This document shows positions 3,451-55,972 of a DNA stretch of 64,000 bases, piece by piece; position 1 is the first letter of the stretch, and each line of letters opens with the position of its first letter. The notes beneath the pieces are model-generated. The model did not search any database. It saw only the letters and a program-made list of their open reading frames with translations, and was not told the origin of the DNA. This stretch comes from an uncultured Candidatus Saccharibacteria bacterium (GTDB lineage: Bacteria > Patescibacteriota > Minisyncoccia > Phycocordibacterales > JACOZG01). The stretch spans positions 213,077-277,076 of the forward strand of contig CAZYXJ010000001.1 in assembly GCA_964651115.1 (NCBI GenBank). Reading direction: 5' to 3'. Position numbers and translations under genes: made by a program.

Positions 3451-3497
3451 GACAGATAGTATAGCGAAAAGCGGCCAGATGTCAAAATCAGTGGACC

Positions 3498-18387: not shown

Positions 18388-18412
18388 CCTGTGTATAAAA
18401 TACAAACACAGG
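18388..18412. promoter_or_regulatory. Inverted repeat upstream of the HTH-Panacea operon (candidate operator)
   Basis: CCTGTGT-N11-ACACAGG, 18-42 nt upstream of the ATG at 18370. Confidence 0.3.
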
Positions 18413-18499
18413 GTGTTGATATTCTATACACGCTCGTGGTAAAATTGTTGCACTGGACTAGTCGAACCAGCAGAAAAATAAACTTAATACCTTAGTACT

Positions 18500-18622
18500 A
18501 TGGCAAAAACCTCAAAAAAGGCCGGTAGGGCTGCATCAAAAGTGTTGCGGAGCAAAAGTGCAGGAAAAAATCCAAAGATAGCTGCCGCTTCTGCATTGCG
18601 ACAGCGTCAAGACCGCCAATAG
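18500..18622 (+). CDS. Small basic ORF, 40 aa (doubtful)
   Basis: My own translation: MAKTSKKAGRAASKVLRSKSAGKNPKIAAASALRQRQDRQ*. Below the track cutoff and no clear Shine-Dalgarno. Confidence 0.2.
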   Translation: MAKTSKKAGRAASKVLRSKSAGKNPKIAAASALRQRQDRQ

Positions 18623-18727
18623 AGGCTAACTTGAGCAAAAGTTACTGGCTTATAGAGAGCTCGCGGAGAAAGAGAATTGATTGGGTTACAGCCATTCACT
18701 AACAGCCCTAGAAAAGTATGCCTCGCT

Positions 18728-18760
18728 CACACAAAACCGCACAATGTGCGGTTTTGTGTT
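18728..18760 (-). terminator. Terminator hairpin after the RM gene
   Basis: CACACAAAACCGCAC-AAT-GTGCGGTTTTGTGT. The stem contains A/T runs, so it could act in both directions. Confidence 0.6.
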
Positions 18761-26204: not shown

Positions 26205-27863
26205 TTAGTAATCCATCCCACCCATACCCGGATGAGCATGACCGCCGGCCGCGGCCGACTTCTCCTCCGGCTCATCAGTCACCGCCACCTCGGTGGTTAA
26301 GAGGATGGCCGCCGCACTGGCCGCGCGCTCGATGCCCGTGCGCGTCACCTTCACCGGATCAACGATGCCCGCCGCAAACATATCCGGCACAATCTCGTCA
26401 GCGTTAGCATCATAACCCTCATTGCCCTTGGCTGATTTGATCTTCTCCACAATCACTTCCCCATTATCTTTGCCCGCGTTAATGGCAATTTGTCGGAGCG
26501 GCGCCTCTAGCGCCTTAAGAACGATCTTAACGCCCGTAGCAAACTCGTCAGCAATATCGGGCGAGGTGGGCTTAAGCGTCTTACTACCAACCTTGGCTCC
26601 GGCCCGTACCAGGGCCGTGCCACCACCAGAGACAATACCCTCTTCGATGGCCGCCTTCGTCGCCTCGACGGCATCTTCGACTTTTAATTTTAAATACTTC
26701 ATCTCCGCTTCGGTCGAGGCGCCCACGCGGATCACGGCAACGCCACCCGACAACTTACCCAAGCGCTCCCGCAGCTTTTCCTTATCATAAGACGATTCGG
26801 TCGTCTCCAGCTGAGTCTTGATCTGGGCCACCCGCTCCTGGATGTCGGCCTTCTTGCCGGCCCCGCCCACGATCGTGGTGCCATCCTTAGTCGCCACCAC
26901 CTTGCGCGCTCGACCCAACTGCTTAAGCTCGACCGTTTCTAACTTCAAGCCCAAACTCTCCGAGATCAATTGACCGCCCGTCAGCGCGGCAATGTCCTCG
27001 AGCATCTCTTTGCGACGATCGCCATAACCCGGCGCCTTAATCGCGAGAGTGTGGAAGATTCCCCGGATCTTATTTAGCACCAGGGTAGGCAGCGCTTCGC
27101 CATCAACATCTTCCGCGATAATCACCAACTCTTTCTTACCGGTCTGGGCCAACTTTTCCAGCAGAGGCAAGATGTCTTTAATTGACGAGATCTTACGGTC
27201 GGTGATCAAAATTGACGCGTCATTATAGACGGCCTCCATCCGCTCCGAGTCAGTGATCATGTAGGGCGAAACGTAACCCTTATCAAACTGCATACCTTCC
27301 ACCAACTCACTCTCGACGCCAAAAGATTGAGACTCCTCCACCGTCACCACGCCGTCCTTGCCGACTTGCTCAATCGCCTCGGCAATAATGGCGCCAAACT
27401 CTTCGCTCTCCGCCGAGATGGCCGCTACTTGCCGGATCTCTTCGCTCGACTTAATCGGCTTAGCCAGTGATTTGAGCGCTTCCACTACTTCGCGCGCGGC
27501 GGCCTCAATCCCCAAGCGGACGCCCATGGCATTAGCGCCAAGCGTCGTCTTTTTAAAACCTTCTTCGATAATCGCCTGAGCCAAAACGACGGCCGTTGTC
27601 GTCCCATCACCGGCCATGTCGTTGGTCTTGCCGGCGACGTCTTTAATAATCTCCGCGCCCAAATTTTCGACGCGATTCTTGAGAGTAATTTCTTTCGCGA
27701 TCGAAACGCCGTCGTTAGTAATCGTCGGCGCGCCAAAACCTTTATCCAAAATGACGTTGCGACCCTTGGGGCCGATGGTAATTTTTACCGCGCTTGCGAC
27801 CGCGTCCACGCCCCGCTTAATCGCCTGCCGCGCCTCATCTCCGTACAGAATTTGTTTTGCCAT
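26205..27863 (-). CDS. groL: Chaperonin GroEL
   Basis: Full-length Cpn60 ([13 protein letters not shown], ...GGMGGMDY C-terminus). Confidence 0.96.
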
Positions 27864-27884: not shown

Positions 27885-28190
27885 TTATTCGATGACGGCC
27901 AAAATATTGGCTTCGCTAATAATGAAGTATTCCTTGCCCTCGACCTTAATCTCGTCCGGTCCATATTTAGAGAAGATGATCCGATCACCCTTCTTGACGC
28001 TCGGCGCGATCCGCGAACCATCTTCGGTGAGCCGACCAGGACCAACGGCCACCACCGTCCCTTGCTCGCCCCGCTCCTTAGACACCGTCTCCGGGATGAT
28101 GATCCCGCTTTTGGTCTGCTGTAATTCGGCTGCCGAAAGAGGCAGAACCAACACCCGATCACCCAATGGCTTAATGTTGATCTTGCTCAT
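27885..28190 (-). CDS. groS: Co-chaperonin GroES
   Basis: 101 aa. IKPLGDRVLV...GIIIPET...G.VVAVGPG pattern. Confidence 0.95.
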   Translation of the reverse strand: MSKINIKPLGDRVLVLPLSAAELQQTKSGIIIPETVSKERGEQGTVVAVGPGRLTEDGSRIAPSVKKGDRIIFSKYGPDEIKVEGKEYFIISEANILAVIE

Positions 28191-28223: not shown

Positions 28224-28251
28224 ATTATAATGGCCCTGGGCGCTTCGTCAA
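28224..28251 (-). promoter_or_regulatory. Candidate groES-groEL promoter
   Basis: Minus strand TTGACG (28246-28251), N16, TATAAT (28224-28229). No CIRCE inverted repeat seen. Confidence 0.4.
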
Positions 28252-28296: not shown

Positions 28297-28527
28297 ATGG
28301 AAACTCTCATCAACATCCTCCCGTGGATTCACGCGGCGGTAGCCATTCTGTTGGTAGTCGTTATTTTGATCCAACGCAGTAGCGAGGGTCTTGGTAGCGC
28401 CTTCGGCGGATCCAGCACCGGCGGCGTCTTTCACACCAAGCGCGGTCTCGAGAAACATCTATTTATCCTGACGGTAATCCTCGCCATCGGTTTTGGTCTC
28501 ACTAGTCTAGCCCAACTTCTGTTTTAA
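28297..28527 (+). CDS. secG: Preprotein translocase subunit SecG
   Basis: 76 aa, two TM segments, and LIQRSSEGLGSAFGGSS, the typical SecG loop. Confidence 0.8.
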   Translation: METLINILPWIHAAVAILLVVVILIQRSSEGLGSAFGGSSTGGVFHTKRGLEKHLFILTVILAIGFGLTSLAQLLF

Positions 28528-32119: not shown

Positions 32120-33301
32120 GTGACCTTAACACCCGCCACTAAACGACGTTTACGCTACGCGATTTATTTAGGTGGATTTTTTCTCAATGCCAGCTCGGCT
32201 CTGACGGCCTACATCAACTCCTCGTTCTTAAATCAATTCGCTCCAGAAAAATTTGTGGGGATCTTTTATGTGGTCGCCTCGCTCGTCAGTTTAATTGGCG
32301 CCATCGCGCTTACCGAGCTAGCCCACCGCCACGGACCAAGAAAAATTCTAGCCGGGCTAAGTGCCGTGGTAGCGGGGCTACTCTTGACTCTCACTCTCAC
32401 CAGCTCCGCCCTCATCTCAATTTTGGCGCTCTTGGCGTATCTGGTGACCTCCTATCTCTTGGCTATTACCCTCGACATCCAACTTGAGCAACTCTCAACC
32501 CATGCCATTACTGGACGGATCAGAGGTCTCTTTCTAACTCTCGTTAATCTGGCCTGGCTACTCTCGCCACTCTTAGCCACCTACCTAGTCGGCAAAAACG
32601 GTTTTAGCAGTGTCTATCTAATCTCTTTTGCCGCCCTGCTCCCCTTGCTCATTTGGGCCACTACCGCGACCAAAACAAAAAATCCCCGTCACGAGCGCTT
32701 TACCTTACTTAAAACTCTGCGCCGGATCAGCTTTGGCAAAACCGCCAAAGCCAGCGCTCTGCGTCGCATCCTAGTAGTGGATCTGGCACTTAACTTTTTC
32801 TACGCCACAATGGTGATCTATACTCCAATCTTTCTCAACCGCGTCCTCGGCTTTGACTGGCTGACCATCGGCAAAATTTTCACCATCATGCTCCTCCCCT
32901 TTGTCCTGATCGATTTCGTCCTGGGCCAAATTGCCGATACTACACTCGGAGAAAAAGAATTGTTGCTTATTGGTCTAGGAGTCGCGGGCGTCAGCACTGG
33001 CAGTCTCGCCTTCTTAACCACCAATTCTGCGTTTGTGTGGGCCGTCATGCTCTTTGCCACTCGAGTCGGAGCAGCCACGATTGAAATGATGAAGGAATCT
33101 TATCTCTTTAAACAAATTGACGGCGGCGACATTAACACCATCTTTCTCTCACGCGCCACCTACCCGCTGGCTTACATTATTGCTCCGGTCCTCGCCACCG
33201 CCGCTCTCTTGGTGATGCCACTTCAAAATCTTTACTTTGGTCTGGGACTAGTCCTGCTCGCAATGATCCCCGTCGCCAGCAAACTTAAGGATACGCGCTA
33301 A
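32120..33301 (+). CDS. MFS transporter
   Basis: About 12 hydrophobic helices. GTG start preceded by AAAGG. Confidence 0.78.
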   Translation: MTLTPATKRRLRYAIYLGGFFLNASSALTAYINSSFLNQFAPEKFVGIFYVVASLVSLIGAIALTELAHRHGPRKILAGLSAVVAGLLLTLTLTSSALISILALLAYLVTSYLLAITLDIQLEQLSTHAITGRIRGLFLTLVNLAWLLSPLLATYLVGKNGFSSVYLISFAALLPLLIWATTATKTKNPRHERFTLLKTLRRISFGKTAKASALRRILVVDLALNFFYATMVIYTPIFLNRVLGFDWLTIGKIFTIMLLPFVLIDFVLGQIADTTLGEKELLLIGLGVAGVSTGSLAFLTTNSAFVWAVMLFATRVGAATIEMMKESYLFKQIDGGDINTIFLSRATYPLAYIIAPVLATAALLVMPLQNLYFGLGLVLLAMIPVASKLKDTR

Positions 33302-33307
33302 TTTTTA

Positions 33308-33342
33308 CAAAAAGAAAACCCCGCCGTTAGCTACGCGCGGGG
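33308..33342 (-). terminator. Strong rho-independent terminator oriented for the minus strand
   Basis: Minus strand CCCCGCGCG-TAGCTAA-CGGCGGGG followed by TTTTCTTTTTG. Confidence 0.65.
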
Positions 33343-33753
33343 ACCTCAATTGAGGATTTCTGCGGGCCTTAACATATAAATGAGCAACGATATCCAGACC
33401 CAACGTTCTCGTCGCCCAGAGAGATTCGATTCTCGATTTGACTCACTCCTCGACTGATTCTGGTTATAATCTCTCAAATTACCCAGATAAGCCGAAGAGT
33501 AAAGATTGATTGAAATGAACTAATCCTTTTTAATGAACTGGCGCGGACAATCAACCAAACTCCACGACAGGCATCGATTCAACGATCCTCGCGCTCCTCT
33601 CTCGCTAGCTACTAATCGATCACAATCTCACTAGCGAGACTACAGGAGAAGATAACTACCGACGCGATTTGTCAGACTTACTTGGGACTAAGCCCTTCCG
33701 ATACGATGCAAGCAGTTCCGCTGACCTGAGGAACCTGCACCCCATTTCAACCT
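33343..33753 (-). ncRNA. Candidate unclassified ncRNA (~410-445 nt including terminator)
   Basis: No ORF of 60 aa or more in any frame across 33302-33821. Bounded by a near-consensus promoter and a terminator. Contains internal perfect stems, e.g. CTCGCTAG...CTAGCGAG (33601-33638) and CCTCAATTGAGG. Confidence 0.3.
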
Positions 33754-33759
33754 GCCACC

Positions 33760-33787
33760 ATCATAGCACATACAAAAATCCTGTCAA
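33760..33787 (-). promoter_or_regulatory. Near-consensus sigma70-type promoter inside the ORF-free region
   Basis: Minus strand TTGACA (33782-33787), N16, TATGAT (33760-33765). Confidence 0.45.
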
Positions 33788-33829
33788 GTATTTTTAGTAC
33801 TTTAACAATAAAACGGCCAAGTTGAGCCA

Positions 33830-36793
33830 TTATTTCATCATTCGGCTGAGGCGGCAGCCCAAACAATCCTTTTCACCACAGCCCCGCTTAACAAATTCGC
33901 CCGACACGATCTCCCCCGTCACCCGATCAAGCAGGTCACGGACCGTCGCCTCATCGGCAGGCGGAATTTCGAAAGCTTCGCGCTTAAATTTTCCACTCTC
34001 ACTCGGCTCCACAAAATCCACCATCGCGCTAGCCACCTTAAAGCGTCCGCGCTCGCACTCTTCGATCAAAATTTTATAGAACACCAACTGACGATAAATA
34101 TCTCCCGTCGAATTTTTGGTCGTACCTAAAATTTCGTTACGACTCTTGGGCGACATTGTTTTATAGTCCACGATCTGTACCGTCTCGGGACTCAGAAATT
34201 CGATCTTATCGATCTTGCCCACCAATTTGAGATCGGGCGTGAGATGACAACCCGGAACTTTATACTCGTTAAGAATCGATCGCGGCCAGCCGCCGACTGG
34301 CGAAGTAGACCAAGTTTGAAACCAGCCAGCCAGCGCTTCTCTACCCCGCACCTGCGCCGCCGCCAAATCTCTTTCCGAAAAAGCTTCATGCTGAACCAGA
34401 CGCTCAAAACTGGCCAACAACGATTCGACGGTCACCTCACCGCCCTCACGATAACGATTAAAAAAAACTTCGAGCGTCCCGTGGATCGCCGTACCATACA
34501 TGGTATGACGATTGCGGATCTGGATCACCCGCAACAAATTAGTAAATAAATAATCAAGCGGGCAGCGCAAATAATTATTTAACCCCGTCGCCGAGAGACC
34601 CTGCTCGCGAAAGCGGCCCGCCAAATAAGCCGGATCAAAAATTGACGCCCCCTGATATTGCCGCGGTGTAAAAATCAAATTGCACTCGGGACGCACCTGG
34701 CTCTCCCACTCCGCCATCGGCTCAAACACCAAGCGCTCCGGATCCAACTCCTCAATAAACTGGCTCGGCAAAAGTGGCCGCCCATCCGATCCCTCAGATG
34801 AGTAACTGAGCGCGACAGCCAAACGCGCGCGAGTGAGCGCCACGTAAAAAAGGCGGCGCTCATCCTCCACCGGATCGGCGGCCGTTGGCACGCCCGCGCG
34901 CGTCGGGATCTTAAAGTATTGCGGCGAACGACGACTCCCCCAACCATTATCCGAAACCCCGATCACGTAGACGTAATCAAACTCCAAACCCTTGGACTTG
35001 TGCGCCGTCATCAACTCCACACCGCTTTGGCCTGCCTCCTGACGAGTCTTGATCCCGCGATGATGCGTCGCCAAACGATTAAGAAATTGAATAAAGTCCG
35101 CCAACCTAAAATTATGATTACTCCGCGAGAGCGCCACCCCCTCGTCGTAGAGCGCGTGTAATTTGCTCAACACCTCCTGGGCTTCGGGCAAACCCAAAAC
35201 ATGCTCCAAATAACCCGACTCCCGCACCACCACCGCGTACAAATCCAAAAAACTCTGATTGGCGGCCAAGCGGGCCCAGCGCTCCAACTTCTGCGACCAA
35301 GATTTTAATTTTTTCTTACGGCTGGTCCGCAAGCGCTGCCAGAGCGAACCGCCGGTCGCCTCCTCCCGCAGGGCATAAATTTCTAGAATATCCACTGCCA
35401 CAAAATCGAGATGCAAAAACTCCAGCAACAAGCGATCATCACCAAAACCATTAATCGCTCGCAAGAGAACAATTAATTTTTGCACCTCAATATCTTCTAA
35501 AATATTAGAGTCGGAACGGACCACGAAAGGGACTCCCGCCCGCTCAAAATAATCAATGATCGGTAGCGAGTCGCCATTAGTGCGATAAAGCACGGCCAAC
35601 TGCTCCGGCGGCACACCGGCGGCCAGCTTTGACTTAACCTCTTCTACTAGGTACAACAATTCGTGAGCGGGTTTAGTAAAGGATCTAACTTTAATCGGCA
35701 GGGACGCTCGCTCGGAGCGCGCCACCAGGGGCGACAAACTCTCAGCCGGCAAAGCCTGACTCTTGCTGATCACACTCTGGGCCGCATCCAAAATAAGCTG
35801 GGTCGAACGATAATTATCCGTTAACGTAATTAGCGTCGCTTGAGGAAAAAGTTTTTTAAAATAATTAAAATTATCCAGCGAGGCGCCTTGAAATTGGAAG
35901 ATGGCCTGCTTCTCATCGCCGACAATAAACAAGTTGGGCTGATCGTGGAAACTAGACAGCAGTTCCAACAAACGATTTTGTGACTGATTGGCATCCTGGT
36001 GCTCGTCAGCCAGCACATATTGATATTCTTCTTGAATCTGCAGACGGAAGTCGCTGTCTTCGCCAAGAGCGCGATTAACCTCTAGCAACATATCGCCAAA
36101 ATCGTAGAGACGACGGGTGGCCAACTTGGTTTCGTAAGCCGTGTAAAGTCGGACTAGCTCCTCAGCTTTGGTAATATTGGTCCGCAAAACTTGATACTTA
36201 CCCTTAATCTGGCCCGCGTAGGCCCCTTTCTCGTGACGCAAATCCGGCACGCTCTCGAGCGCCTTCTGCTCGAGCTCAACAATCGCGCGCAGGTCGTCGG
36301 GGCTGACATTTTCGCGCTTGAGTCGATCAATTTCTTGCTGGACCGGAAAGAGATAGTGGAATTGGTCGCCATAGGGTCGGAGGAGCGAGAGATCGCTCTC
36401 CAAAATTGCCTCCTCCAAAATCTGAATCTGATCAATCGGTAAAGCATTGATCGCTCCCACAATACGTGGGAATTTTTCGGGATAACGTCTAATCAACTCG
36501 TTAGCAAAACTATGGAAGGTGTGAATGGGGATCCGGTAGGCGCGACTGCCCACCAACGACACCAGTCGCCGGCGCATCGCGTGGGCGCCGGCATTAGTAA
36601 AAGTTAGCGCCAAGATCGCGTCGGCGGGCGTGTCGGTCTGACGCAAAATGTTGGCGATCCGCAGAGTTAACACTTGAGTCTTGCCCGTGCCAGGACCAGC
36701 CACCACCATCACCGGACCCTCAATCAGATCAACGGCCCGACGTTGAGCGGGATTAAGACGTTGATAGTGTTGCTCAAATTGATCCACCGACAT
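33830..36793 (-). CDS. UvrD/PcrA-type ATP-dependent DNA helicase fused to a C-terminal PD-(D/E)XK nuclease domain
   Basis: Walker A AGPGTGKT, DEHQD, SF1 motifs. C-terminal VDYKT... nuclease-like region with a Cys cluster (CGEKDCLGC). Confidence 0.85.
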   Translation of the reverse strand: MSVDQFEQHYQRLNPAQRRAVDLIEGPVMVVAGPGTGKTQVLTLRIANILRQTDTPADAILALTFTNAGAHAMRRRLVSLVGSRAYRIPIHTFHSFANELIRRYPEKFPRIVGAINALPIDQIQILEEAILESDLSLLRPYGDQFHYLFPVQQEIDRLKRENVSPDDLRAIVELEQKALESVPDLRHEKGAYAGQIKGKYQVLRTNITKAEELVRLYTAYETKLATRRLYDFGDMLLEVNRALGEDSDFRLQIQEEYQYVLADEHQDANQSQNRLLELLSSFHDQPNLFIVGDEKQAIFQFQGASLDNFNYFKKLFPQATLITLTDNYRSTQLILDAAQSVISKSQALPAESLSPLVARSERASLPIKVRSFTKPAHELLYLVEEVKSKLAAGVPPEQLAVLYRTNGDSLPIIDYFERAGVPFVVRSDSNILEDIEVQKLIVLLRAINGFGDDRLLLEFLHLDFVAVDILEIYALREEATGGSLWQRLRTSRKKKLKSWSQKLERWARLAANQSFLDLYAVVVRESGYLEHVLGLPEAQEVLSKLHALYDEGVALSRSNHNFRLADFIQFLNRLATHHRGIKTRQEAGQSGVELMTAHKSKGLEFDYVYVIGVSDNGWGSRRSPQYFKIPTRAGVPTAADPVEDERRLFYVALTRARLAVALSYSSEGSDGRPLLPSQFIEELDPERLVFEPMAEWESQVRPECNLIFTPRQYQGASIFDPAYLAGRFREQGLSATGLNNYLRCPLDYLFTNLLRVIQIRNRHTMYGTAIHGTLEVFFNRYREGGEVTVESLLASFERLVQHEAFSERDLAAAQVRGREALAGWFQTWSTSPVGGWPRSILNEYKVPGCHLTPDLKLVGKIDKIEFLSPETVQIVDYKTMSPKSRNEILGTTKNSTGDIYRQLVFYKILIEECERGRFKVASAMVDFVEPSESGKFKREAFEIPPADEATVRDLLDRVTGEIVSGEFVKRGCGEKDCLGCRLSRMMK

Positions 36794-36827: not shown

Positions 36828-37280
36828 ATGACGCTACACGAAACGATTAAAAACGCCATTAAAGAGGCGATGAAGGAGAAGAACTCGGTTAAGCTCACGG
36901 TTATCCGTGGCTTGATCTCGGCCTTTATGAACGAGGCCGTCACCAAGGGTTACAAGCCCGACCAGATCCTCACTGACGAAGAGGCCATCGCCGTCATCAA
37001 GCGACTAGCCAAGCAACGCAAAGACGCCATCGCCCAATTTACCGCCGGTGGCCGAAGTGACTTAGCAGAGAGCGAACAGGCCGAACTCGCCTACGTCGAA
37101 ACCTACTTACCAGCCACCATGCCTCGCGAAGAAATTAAAAAAGTGGCCGAAGGCGTAATCGCCGCCACGGGCGCCACTAAAGCTGACCTAGGCAAGGTGA
37201 TTGGCGCCGTCGTCAAAGAGACCCGCGGCCAAGCCGACGGCGCGGACGTCAAAGCGGTGGTGGAGGAACTCTTAAAATAG
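36828..37280 (+). CDS. yqeY: GatB/YqeY domain protein
   Basis: 150 aa. IKEAMKEKNSVKLTVIRGL...DAIAQF...AELAYVETYLP pattern. Confidence 0.85.
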   Translation: MTLHETIKNAIKEAMKEKNSVKLTVIRGLISAFMNEAVTKGYKPDQILTDEEAIAVIKRLAKQRKDAIAQFTAGGRSDLAESEQAELAYVETYLPATMPREEIKKVAEGVIAATGATKADLGKVIGAVVKETRGQADGADVKAVVEELLK

Positions 37281-37291
37281 TTTTTAAAAAA

Positions 37292-37312
37292 CCTTGGCCA
37301 ATTCGGCCAAGG
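37292..37312. terminator. Bidirectional terminator between convergent genes
   Basis: AAAAA-CCTTGGCC-AATTC-GGCCAAGG-TTT. Confidence 0.6.
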
Positions 37313-37320
37313 TTTAAGGT

Positions 37321-38004
37321 CTAAGCGGTGGGAACGGGAATCGCGGTAACGTCACGAAAGCGGAGGATGCTAGAACTATGATCCCAACCACACCCGACGT
37401 CTTCAAGGTCGATACTATCCCGGCCCAGCTCGCCCGCATCAAAATGGCGAGATAGCGATGGCACCAAATGGCCCTGAACAGGATGTTGATACAGACGCTC
37501 CTTCTTATCAAAAGAGGTCCAGAATAACATCCTAGGAAAATCCCTTCGACACTTCTGCCAGATAATGGCGATCCCCTGAATGCCAGTAAGAAGACCATTC
37601 TTACCAGAAGCCAGCTCCAGGCACTCCTCAAATCCCATCACCCGACGCGGCTTAATGTCAAAAACATCCACCTCGTAGGCGTGGCCGGGAATGAGACGAT
37701 GACTCGGCTCACGGTAATGTTCGTCACCAATTACCTCTTTTGAACACAGAAACAAACTATTGGGCAACTTCGACAGAGCCGTAGCGTGTTCGTAATCGAC
37801 ATCGACAACGAAAGAGAGGGTGAGGCGTAAATAAAAAGGCGGACCGTCAAAACGCCAATCACCAATGAATTTCGCCACCACATCACCGAGTCCGGGAGCA
37901 TTGTTGACACGCTCGGCCTCGTCTTTGGACAGACGGGCCTTGTTGTAAGCCTCTGCCACCAGCTTAAGGAACTGGCGGCCTTCGGGACCGTCGGCCTGAA
38001 CCAT
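37321..38004 (-). CDS. Hypothetical protein, probable diverged non-diversified paralogue of the DGR target
   Basis: 227 aa with no signal peptide. Shares segments with ORF 6389-7048: DGxxGRQF..V at the N-terminus, V.K..GD..Y, E..(I/V)....PR, and a C-terminal ..RFR tail. AAGGAGG Shine-Dalgarno. Confidence 0.55.
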   Translation of the reverse strand: MVQADGPEGRQFLKLVAEAYNKARLSKDEAERVNNAPGLGDVVAKFIGDWRFDGPPFYLRLTLSFVVDVDYEHATALSKLPNSLFLCSKEVIGDEHYREPSHRLIPGHAYEVDVFDIKPRRVMGFEECLELASGKNGLLTGIQGIAIIWQKCRRDFPRMLFWTSFDKKERLYQHPVQGHLVPSLSRHFDAGELGRDSIDLEDVGCGWDHSSSILRFRDVTAIPVPTA

Positions 38005-38065
38005 CGAAATTACCTCCTTTTATGAAGATCTGTTTTGGTTAATTTACCTGATTTGACCCGTTAAA

Positions 38066-38094
38066 TTTATATTATATATAATCTTAACTGTCAA
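38066..38094 (-). promoter_or_regulatory. Candidate promoter for ORF 37321-38004
   Basis: Minus strand TTGACA (38089-38094), N17, TATAAA (38066-38071). Confidence 0.35.
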
Positions 38095-38217
38095 CATAAG
38101 AGCGATAGCGAACGATATATCTCTTTACGTGCGGTCAAATTCGGCAAGCTTTTTTAAGCACTGAAGAACGGCTGACTCACGTTGATAAAAGATGATTTTT
38201 AAAGTAGAGTTAGCCAC

Positions 38218-55093: not shown

Positions 55094-55972
55094 CTACTTT
55101 TTAAATAGACCCTGCGGGCGAAATAAAAGAAACAGAAGCAGGAGCACGAAGGCGATCGCATCCTTCCACTCCCCGGCCAACTTCCAAATCCCAAAATTTT
55201 CTACAAAGCCCAAAATAAAAGCCCCGATGATCCCACCCCAAATATTACCGGCGCCACCAATAATCGCCGCGATCACTCCTTTTAGGAGGAGTGATAACCC
55301 CATCGTTGGCTCGATACCGGTATCAAAGCCGATCATGATCCCCGCCAACCCAGCAATGGCCGAGCCGAGAAAGAAAACGGTGGCAATCACATTGCTGGTA
55401 TTGATCCCCACGATTTTAGAAACCTCTTCATCATCGCCCACGGCCCGGATGGCTTTACCGATCGCCGTGTATTTAAGAAAGAGTCCCAGCAGCACGCCGA
55501 TCACCAGGACCAGGGCCACAATAATAAGCTGGACCTGAGTGATTACGCCGCCGGCAATCTCGTAGACCTGACCGCTGCCGGCGGCGCGACTTAGGGTCTG
55601 GAACTGACTAGTAAAGAGCATGGCGATAATCGCCTGGAGCATGGTAAAGGCACCCAGGGAGGCAACTAGCAAAACCATGTTGGAAGCTTTGCGCTTCCGA
55701 AGCGGTCGATAAACTAGATAGTTAATCAAAAGCCCGATCAAACCAGCCACCAAGACGCCCAAAACCACCGCCCACCATAAGTCGCCACCAAGTTTTTTAT
55801 AAAAAAAGAAAACGGTATAACCACCCACTGCCGTGAGAGCACCATAACCAAGATCAAAAAACTTGACCGTACCAAAGATTAAATTAAAACCGAGCGCCAA
55901 GAGAGCATAGATGGCGCCAGCAATAATGCTATTAGCAACAAGTTGTGGCAAGATATCCATATATATTTTCAA
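55094..55972 (-). CDS. livH: Branched-chain-type ABC transporter permease (LivH-like)
   Basis: LVANSIIAGAIYALLALGFNLIFG is the typical LivH N-terminus. Confidence 0.82.
   Translation of the reverse strand: MKIYMDILPQLVANSIIAGAIYALLALGFNLIFGTVKFFDLGYGALTAVGGYTVFFFYKKLGGDLWWAVVLGVLVAGLIGLLINYLVYRPLRKRKASNMVLLVASLGAFTMLQAIIAMLFTSQFQTLSRAAGSGQVYEIAGGVITQVQLIIVALVLVIGVLLGLFLKYTAIGKAIRAVGDDEEVSKIVGINTSNVIATVFFLGSAIAGLAGIMIGFDTGIEPTMGLSLLLKGVIAAIIGGAGNIWGGIIGAFILGFVENFGIWKLAGEWKDAIAFVLLLLFLLFRPQGLFKK

Follow-up and report, generated by a model that had tools for sequence, protein, structure and literature searches.

Genomes of Saccharibacteria and other CPR bacteria are about 1 Mb in size and contain almost no spare DNA, and to our knowledge very few ncRNAs have been described in CPR bacteria beyond the universal RNAs. 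The question raised by the present locus is what occupies the space of about half a kilobase that lies, free of any sizeable reading frame, between two convergent genes of a Candidatus Saccharibacteria MAG. The window, that is, the whole stretch of 64,000 nucleotides that was analysed, has no ORF of at least 60 aa overlapping 33302-33821, and these 520 nt form the largest ORF-free gap in it (the next one is 349 nt). On one side, the gap is bordered by the gene of a UvrD/PD-(D/E)XK helicase-nuclease of the AddA/PcrA-like type on the minus strand (33830-36793), and on the other side by the gene of an MFS transporter on the plus strand (32120-33301), which is convergent with the helicase gene; the gene of RNase J also belongs to the flanking set. 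Exact protein look-ups, made with the proteins of the window and with the spurious ORFs, returned no gene calls for the region. The initial annotation, which was made from the letters alone, had described an ORF-free interval with a near-consensus promoter, a GC-rich terminator and several local stems on the minus strand, and all of these were found again in the present analysis, as described below.

Distribution of the segment and its insertion between two stop codons

Apart from the window genome, the segment is carried by one other known genome, L001 (CAYUHC010000009.1), in which the helicase is 97% identical at the amino acid level and the nucleotide identity of the flanking genes is 89-93%. 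Seven syntenic relatives with helicase identities of 42-69%, which are MAGs labelled Candidatus Saccharibacteria or Patescibacteria, are without it. In five of the seven (L002, L020, L021, L005 and L008), which have the same helicase/MFS/RNase J order, the stop codons of helicase and MFS transporter are only 0-15 nt apart, and the other two contain unrelated coding inserts at the junction. Since the stops stand back to back in the relatives, the roughly 522 nt of the window/L001 lineage are present exactly between the two stop codons, and the segment fills the space between them from one stop to the other. Searches of 5.8 billion proteins with the helicase and the MFS transporter gave no intermediate relatives, with no helicase identity between 69% and 97% and no MFS identity between 48% and 96%; after L001, the closest helicases have 69, 67 and 64% identity and the closest MFS transporter has 48%.

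In L011, which has the same synteny and a helicase of 42% identity, a different insert of 575 nt occupies the junction (L011:8869-9443). Two small hydrophobic ORFs of 94 aa and 50 aa are present in it, together with SD sequences and a terminator, so that the insert encodes two small membrane proteins; it was considered as a homologue of the segment and rejected as unrelated. The different insert of L011 indicates that the junction evidently tolerates insertions, and the convergent junction is a recurrent insertion site. As for the way of insertion, there are no marks of a mobile element: terminal inverted repeats, target duplication and a second copy in the window are all absent, and the junction, which reads ATAA before and TAGC after the segment, is unduplicated. 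No second copy was found in 259 kb of related loci either. A MITE or IS remnant, which is recognised by terminal inverted repeats, target-site duplication and multiple copies, was for these reasons rejected. Another place where the two genomes differ is 37280-38160, between yqeY and a pseudouridine synthase gene and 3.5 kb from the segment, which is not homologous to L001:4977-5509. It holds a 226-aa ORF (37321-38004, minus) with no Pfam match, the counterpart stretch of L001 holds a 122-aa Fic/DOC ORF, and the place looks like a small variable islet.

Promoter, terminator and predicted transcript

A sigma-70-type promoter is located on the minus strand at 33760..33787 and consists of TTGACA (33787-33782), a 16-nt spacer and TATGAT (33765-33760), as first read, together with a TG at 33768-33767 that makes the -10 element an extended one; 11 of 12 positions agree with the consensus. 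A sigma-70 scan of the 64 kb gave six sites with at least 11/12 agreement versus 1.1 in shuffles, and among these six only the promoter of the segment has the TG of the extended -10, while one other fronts groES-groEL. Because near-consensus sites are enriched and one of them stands before groES-groEL, it is probable that they are genuine and strong promoters in the genome studied here. The five further sites lie at 3485, 7176, 22675, 28251 (minus) and 38053 (plus), and it is the site at 28251 that precedes groES (27885-28190) and groEL (26205-27863). In L001, TTGACA and TG are kept and the -10 element is TATGCT; 2 of the 28 promoter positions differ (7.1%). Directly upstream of the -35 element there is an AT-rich stretch (33788..33811, minus, from reading the sequence), which may act in the manner of an UP element. 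It is part of the 43 nt from the helicase stop codon to the -35 element, in which L001 has a single difference (2.3%).

At the other end of the segment, an intrinsic terminator is located at 33308..33342 (minus), seen both in the sequence and in the folding: a GC-rich stem CCCCGCGCGU...ACGGCGGGG at 33342-33319 is followed by UUUUCUUUUUG up to 33308. Just upstream of it, the palindrome CCUCAAUUGAGG (33344..33355, minus) forms a predicted 4-bp hairpin and is invariant in L001, in which the sole change of the terminator sits in the loop. Terminator and CCUCAAUUGAGG hairpin together reach -19.7 kcal/mol (z -3.35), and from the end of the terminator to the stop codon of the MFS gene there are only 6 nt. 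The consensus terminator scan missed 33342-33308 because its rule allows a loop of 8 nt or less. The same scan reported a weak hairpin with a U-rich tail at 33812..33831 (minus; -7.1 kcal/mol, z -1.97), which overlaps the stop codon of the helicase gene and whose single change in L001 falls in the loop; it is possibly the terminator of the helicase gene.

In the window, therefore, the promoter lies upstream and the GC hairpin with its U-tract downstream on the same strand, which is the arrangement of an independent sigma-70/intrinsic-terminator unit, and both elements are conserved in L001. The GC hairpin and U-run lie about 445 nt downstream of the promoter on the minus strand. When the 5′ end is placed 7 nt downstream of the -10 element and the 3′ end at the end of the U-run, the predicted primary transcript would extend over 33308..33753 (minus) and measure about 446 nt; the predicted RNA of L001 would measure about 490 nt.

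Conservation between the two carriers

The four-fold degenerate sites of the helicase, MFS and RNase J genes were used as the neutral reference, and 274 of the 928 sites (29.5%) differ between the window and L001. Against this rate, every part of the segment is conserved, although the degree varies greatly along its length. The stretch from the stop codon to the -35 element (P about 6e-6) and the promoter (P about 4e-3) have been mentioned above. The 5′ core of 198 nt (33545..33742, minus) has 3 differences (1.5%; binomial P about 8e-26), and the module of palindrome and terminator has 1 in 62 (1.6%; P about 1e-8). Between them lies the variable 3′ domain (33359..33544, minus), in which 30 of 180 aligned nucleotides differ (16.7%; P about 5e-5) and indels of 1, 1, 1 and 2 nt occur. 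The segment is 4- to 20-fold more conserved than the flanking four-fold sites, with the 3′ half at 16.7% versus 29.5%. Similar identity is reached in the 14-kb alignment only by strongly constrained coding stretches, for example groES. A 76-aa SecG-like membrane ORF (28297-28527), upstream of the SBP_bac_5 gene, was also noted in a stretch with 97-100% identity to L001.

At TTGAAATG (33743..33750, minus, in the window/L001 alignment), L001 has an extra 45 nt, which according to folding form a self-contained hairpin bounded by TTGAAAT direct repeats. Modular changes of this kind are typical of RNA genes. In principle, recent exchange instead of selection could account for the low divergence of the core; the mosaic of 1.5%, 16.7% and 1.6% along the segment points to heterogeneous purifying selection rather than to a single recent exchange tract.

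Predicted secondary structure

The 446-nt RNA has a predicted minimum free energy of -149.2 kcal/mol (z -2.57), and the opposite strand reaches -114.9 kcal/mol, a strand asymmetry that favours the minus strand. The 198-nt core alone is no more stable than its shuffles (z -1.15). Within the RNA several local elements are predicted, all read on the minus strand. Near the 5′ end, a hairpin GGUGCAGGUUCC...GGAACUGCUUGCAUC (also given as GCAGGUUCC...GGAACUGC) at 33705..33741 has -16.4 kcal/mol (z -2.2) and is invariant in L001. It is followed at 33594..33648 by a long hairpin (-23.4 kcal/mol, z -2.5) with a perfect stem of 9-10 bp (33639-33630/33609-33600) and an outer CUCC/GGAG helix; the perfect stem, UCUCGCUAG/CUAGCGAGA at 33639-33631 and 33608-33600, is also given as CUCGCUAG/CUAGCGAG and is an inverted repeat with 100% complementarity. 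With the palindrome CCUCAAUUGAGG, this stem and the 5′ hairpin make up the local stems that had been proposed at the outset. In the 3′ domain there is a very stable two-tier hairpin at 33445..33500, with CGGCUUAUC in its 5′ arm (-26.2 kcal/mol, z -5.22; none of 200 shuffles as stable), and the opposite strand there reaches only -14.0 kcal/mol. This hairpin and the terminator are the best-supported local elements; outside these two, the RNA folds hardly better than its shuffled controls.

Five of the changes in L001 fall within 33445..33500, and of these three are wobble-compatible in stems, one is unpaired and one opens a loop-closing pair. All 36 substitutions can be placed in a consensus fold calculated from both sequences, 27 at unpaired positions and nine as one-sided wobbles, although such a fold is biased by construction; in the fold calculated from the window alone, the L001 substitutions spare base pairs no more than random (P about 0.23). 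Conservation and covariation in relatives had both been named as checks; conservation was found in L001, and the two sequences that exist have no double compensatory change. On the whole, a secondary structure is plausible from the folding models.

Coding potential

None of the ORFs of the segment, and no start, stop or frame, is conserved in L001, and there is no three-base periodicity. In L001, 15 codons are added to the 29-aa ORF that starts at 33745, its stop (TAG to CAG) and the upstream AGG are lost, and it becomes 56 aa long; the 20-aa ORF at 33582 is changed to 61 aa by a 1-nt deletion; frameshifts affect both this ORF and a 43-aa one; and the 33-aa ORF of the plus strand loses its ATG. 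A Pfam search on the six frames of the segment gave no match, the six concatenated frames gave none at E<=1 against 5.8 billion proteins, and none of the ORFs of the segment is present in the protein collection. A protein-coding small ORF was therefore rejected, with starts and stops lost, indels of 1-2 nt, no synonymous bias and no homologue. Since synonymous-type changes are absent from the ORFs, it is the nucleotides that are under constraint. The same translated searches revealed no recognisable pseudogene remnant, and since the segment is also far better conserved than the four-fold sites, the suggestion of gene debris, which the initial annotation had kept as an alternative, has to be given up.

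Comparison with known RNA families

A scan of the whole window with Rfam 15 at gathering thresholds returned only tRNA-Ser, and a scan at E<=10 of 33200-33950 and of L001 returned only noise. Patescibacteria tRNA genes with group I introns that escape RF00028 and ARAGORN have been reported (PMC13011429), and it was worthwhile for this reason to run ARAGORN with introns allowed. It found no tRNA or tmRNA gene at default thresholds; at the 80% threshold there were only implausible cloverleaves, in which the D stem has 2 bp, the T loop is non-canonical and the "intron" measures 90 nt. With no default call and no match to RF00028, a tRNA with a group I intron was rejected. The tmRNA was likewise rejected, since its sole match was a spurious permuted call in L001 at the 80% threshold and Rfam gave no match. 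For SRP RNA there is no Rfam match at E<=10, and a resemblance to CAGGUCAG lacks the GGAA loop closed by C-G pairs. For 6S RNA, RF00013 does not match and the predicted fold of the 446 nt is multi-hairpin. The exclusion of 6S RNA is less than absolute, since divergent 6S RNAs are known to escape Rfam.

RNase P RNA had been raised by the 9-mer CGGCUUAUC. The 9-mer is indeed present at 33494-33486, but the lead to RNase P is refuted: the 9-mer makes up the 5′ side of a local hairpin, L001 has CGACUUAUC in its place, and neither RF00010 nor RF00011 (P4 strands GGAAAGUCC/ACAGAAnnCGGCUUA) matches the window or L001 at gathering thresholds or at E<=10. What is common to the segment and bacterial RNase P RNA is a similar length and the likeness of the 9-mer to the 3′ strand of P4; what separates them is that the segment has no GGAAAGUCC partner and no covariance-model match, and that its 9-mer is locally paired and lies 180 nt from the 3′ end.

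Searches for homologues of the segment itself were also negative. A 20-mer and a 19-mer, used as patterns on viral contigs, had no matches, an 18-mer pattern gave 15 matches in metagenome contigs, all of which nhmmer showed to be chance, and blastn against phages and plasmids gave nothing meaningful. A covariance model of the core (R1), run over 259 kb of related loci, returned the self matches and one weak match, which lies at 55421-55586 (minus; 11.6 bits, E 0.25) inside a 292-aa ORF and is considered a chance match. No k-mer or motif enrichment (ATCG, GAATC, GGA) was significant after multiple-testing correction, and a literature search found no described Saccharibacteria ncRNA of this kind. 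The segment thus belongs to no described family and "unclassified", as the initial annotation had called it, is still the correct word with Rfam 15, ARAGORN, Pfam and 5.8 billion proteins all without a match; as a kind, an orphan ncRNA gene that runs from promoter to terminator is familiar.

Interpretation and alternative explanations

The segment has a strong promoter and a terminator of its own and is conserved far above neutral sites, and it is therefore most likely a lineage-restricted ncRNA gene. Stated in full, it would be a functional, independently transcribed, lineage-restricted orphan ncRNA of about 446 nt, which on the sequence evidence is the probable explanation, held with moderate confidence. 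According to this proposal, a self-contained transcription unit was inserted between the convergent helicase and MFS stops in one Candidatus Saccharibacteria lineage. The near-consensus sigma-70 promoter, with its extended -10 element and AT-rich upstream region, would drive synthesis of the RNA, about 446 nt long in the window genome and about 490 nt long in L001, and the intrinsic terminator would stop it. The almost invariant 198-nt 5′ core would be the functional part, and the faster-evolving 3′ domain, with its hairpins and terminator, may serve stability and 3′-end formation.

The helicase gene offers another way of reading the same anatomy, in which the segment is its long 3′ UTR and a termination module, mainly a strong terminator that insulates the convergent genes, with a promoter that would be incidental or only secondary. 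The hairpin at the end of the helicase gene itself is weak, at -7.1 kcal/mol, the first strong terminator past the gene is that at 33342-33308, and the relatives with back-to-back stops have no terminator at all. However, a terminator needs about 40 nt and not 520, a role as spacer leaves 198 nearly invariant nucleotides unexplained, and the conserved 11/12 promoter with TG and AT-rich upstream region also speaks against it. This alternative, which had been named from the beginning, is weakened by the promoter and the invariant core and keeps the weak helicase hairpin in its favour; it is unlikely. Selfish or residual DNA, that is, a mobile element or what remains of an inserted cassette, whose low divergence would come from recent transfer or gene conversion between the two lineages, would agree with the presence in only two genomes and absence from all syntenic relatives, with a junction that accepts other inserts such as that of L011, and with the lack of structural covariation in the two sequences. 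Yet the mosaic of divergence would need two separate exchange tracts, the terminal repeats, target duplication and second copy expected of such an element are missing, and the phage, plasmid and viral collections as well as the protein searches are empty, which makes this explanation rather improbable.

That the segment is the mRNA of one or more very small proteins, for example of the 29-aa ORF at 33745 or the 20-aa ORF at 33582, is very unlikely: short ORFs do exist, and the 45-nt indel of L001 is in frame with the 29-aa ORF, but this ORF loses its stop and AGG in L001, the 20-aa ORF is frameshifted, and there is no homologue among the 5.8 billion proteins. The size, the strong promoter and an rRNA-like conservation of the core would fit a highly divergent housekeeping RNA (RNase P RNA, tmRNA, SRP RNA or 6S RNA), or a tRNA gene with a divergent group I intron of the Patescibacteria type that escapes RF00028 and ARAGORN (PMC13011429). 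Against this stand the lack of any Rfam family at E<=10 in either genome, the sub-threshold cloverleaves that are all ARAGORN offers, and a CGGCUUAUC that is a hairpin arm and not conserved, so there is scarcely any probability left for it. Just as little is given to an element that acts as DNA, such as several clustered sites for protein binding, or a site of recombination or chromosome organisation. The constraint on the core is on sequence and not visibly on structure, and the palindrome CCTCAATTGAGG is invariant, as such an element would have it; 200 contiguous invariant bases, however, far exceed the needs of a binding site, neither a repeated motif nor a GC-skew inflection is present, and both the promoter/terminator architecture and the unequal folding of the two strands point to RNA.

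Proposed mode of action and relation to known RNAs

If the segment is an ncRNA gene, as preferred here, the pattern of its constraint gives some indication of how the RNA may work. The constraint extends over about 200 contiguous nucleotides, loops and stems alike, and not over a short seed, from which we infer an RNA that binds protein or forms an RNP, or else an extended pairing surface; an sRNA acting by a short seed would be disfavoured. By analogy with 6S RNA and CsrB/RsmZ, protein sequestration would be the most likely mode of action. Like them, the RNA of the segment would be abundant, non-coding and conserved across the whole of its functional domain; unlike them, it lacks a 6S-like rod with central bubble, GGA is not enriched, and Rfam matches neither 6S nor CsrB.

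The orphan sRNAs, that is, trans-encoded ncRNA genes of bacterial intergenic regions that are restricted to a species or genus, resemble the segment as stand-alone sigma-70 promoter/intrinsic terminator units without an ORF, narrowly distributed and placed between unrelated genes. The predicted RNA of about 446 nt is, however, 2-4 times longer than is typical of them, its constraint covers about 200 nt versus a short seed, and its host belongs to a lineage of epibionts with reduced genomes. The large RNAs OLE, ROOL, GOLLD and raiA, all in Rfam, share with it a length of more than 400 nt, multiple hairpins (predicted in the segment) and strong sequence conservation. They differ in that the segment matches none of them and is without a covariation-supported architecture, and in that they are widespread, whereas the segment is in two genomes only.

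What makes the segment notable is its size, a core with rRNA-like conservation, and the very compact CPR genome in which it sits. If the proposal is true, it would be a rare example of an RNA gene specific to one lineage in a genome of this type, with a promoter equal to that of groESL, and would show an RNA gene arriving as a complete cassette between convergent genes. It may even be the first member of a new class of RNP-type ncRNA, large at about 0.45 kb, in Saccharibacteria/CPR, acquired as a ready-made promoter-RNA-terminator cassette, with a 200-nt core constrained like rRNA and a lineage-specific function, for example in the epibiotic lifestyle, but the chance of this is slim. Practical value is limited for now, because only two MAGs carry the segment and the organism is uncultured.

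A second ORF-free gap in the window

The second-largest ORF-free gap of the window, at 18410-18758, has a 10/12 promoter with TG (18416, plus) and contains a very basic ORF of 40 aa (18500-18622, plus). Its neighbours, judged by eye, are a 240-aa gene with an HTH-like N-terminus and a 1124-aa gene resembling a fusion of N6-adenine methylase and restriction enzyme, and the gap is possibly part of a defence or TA locus.
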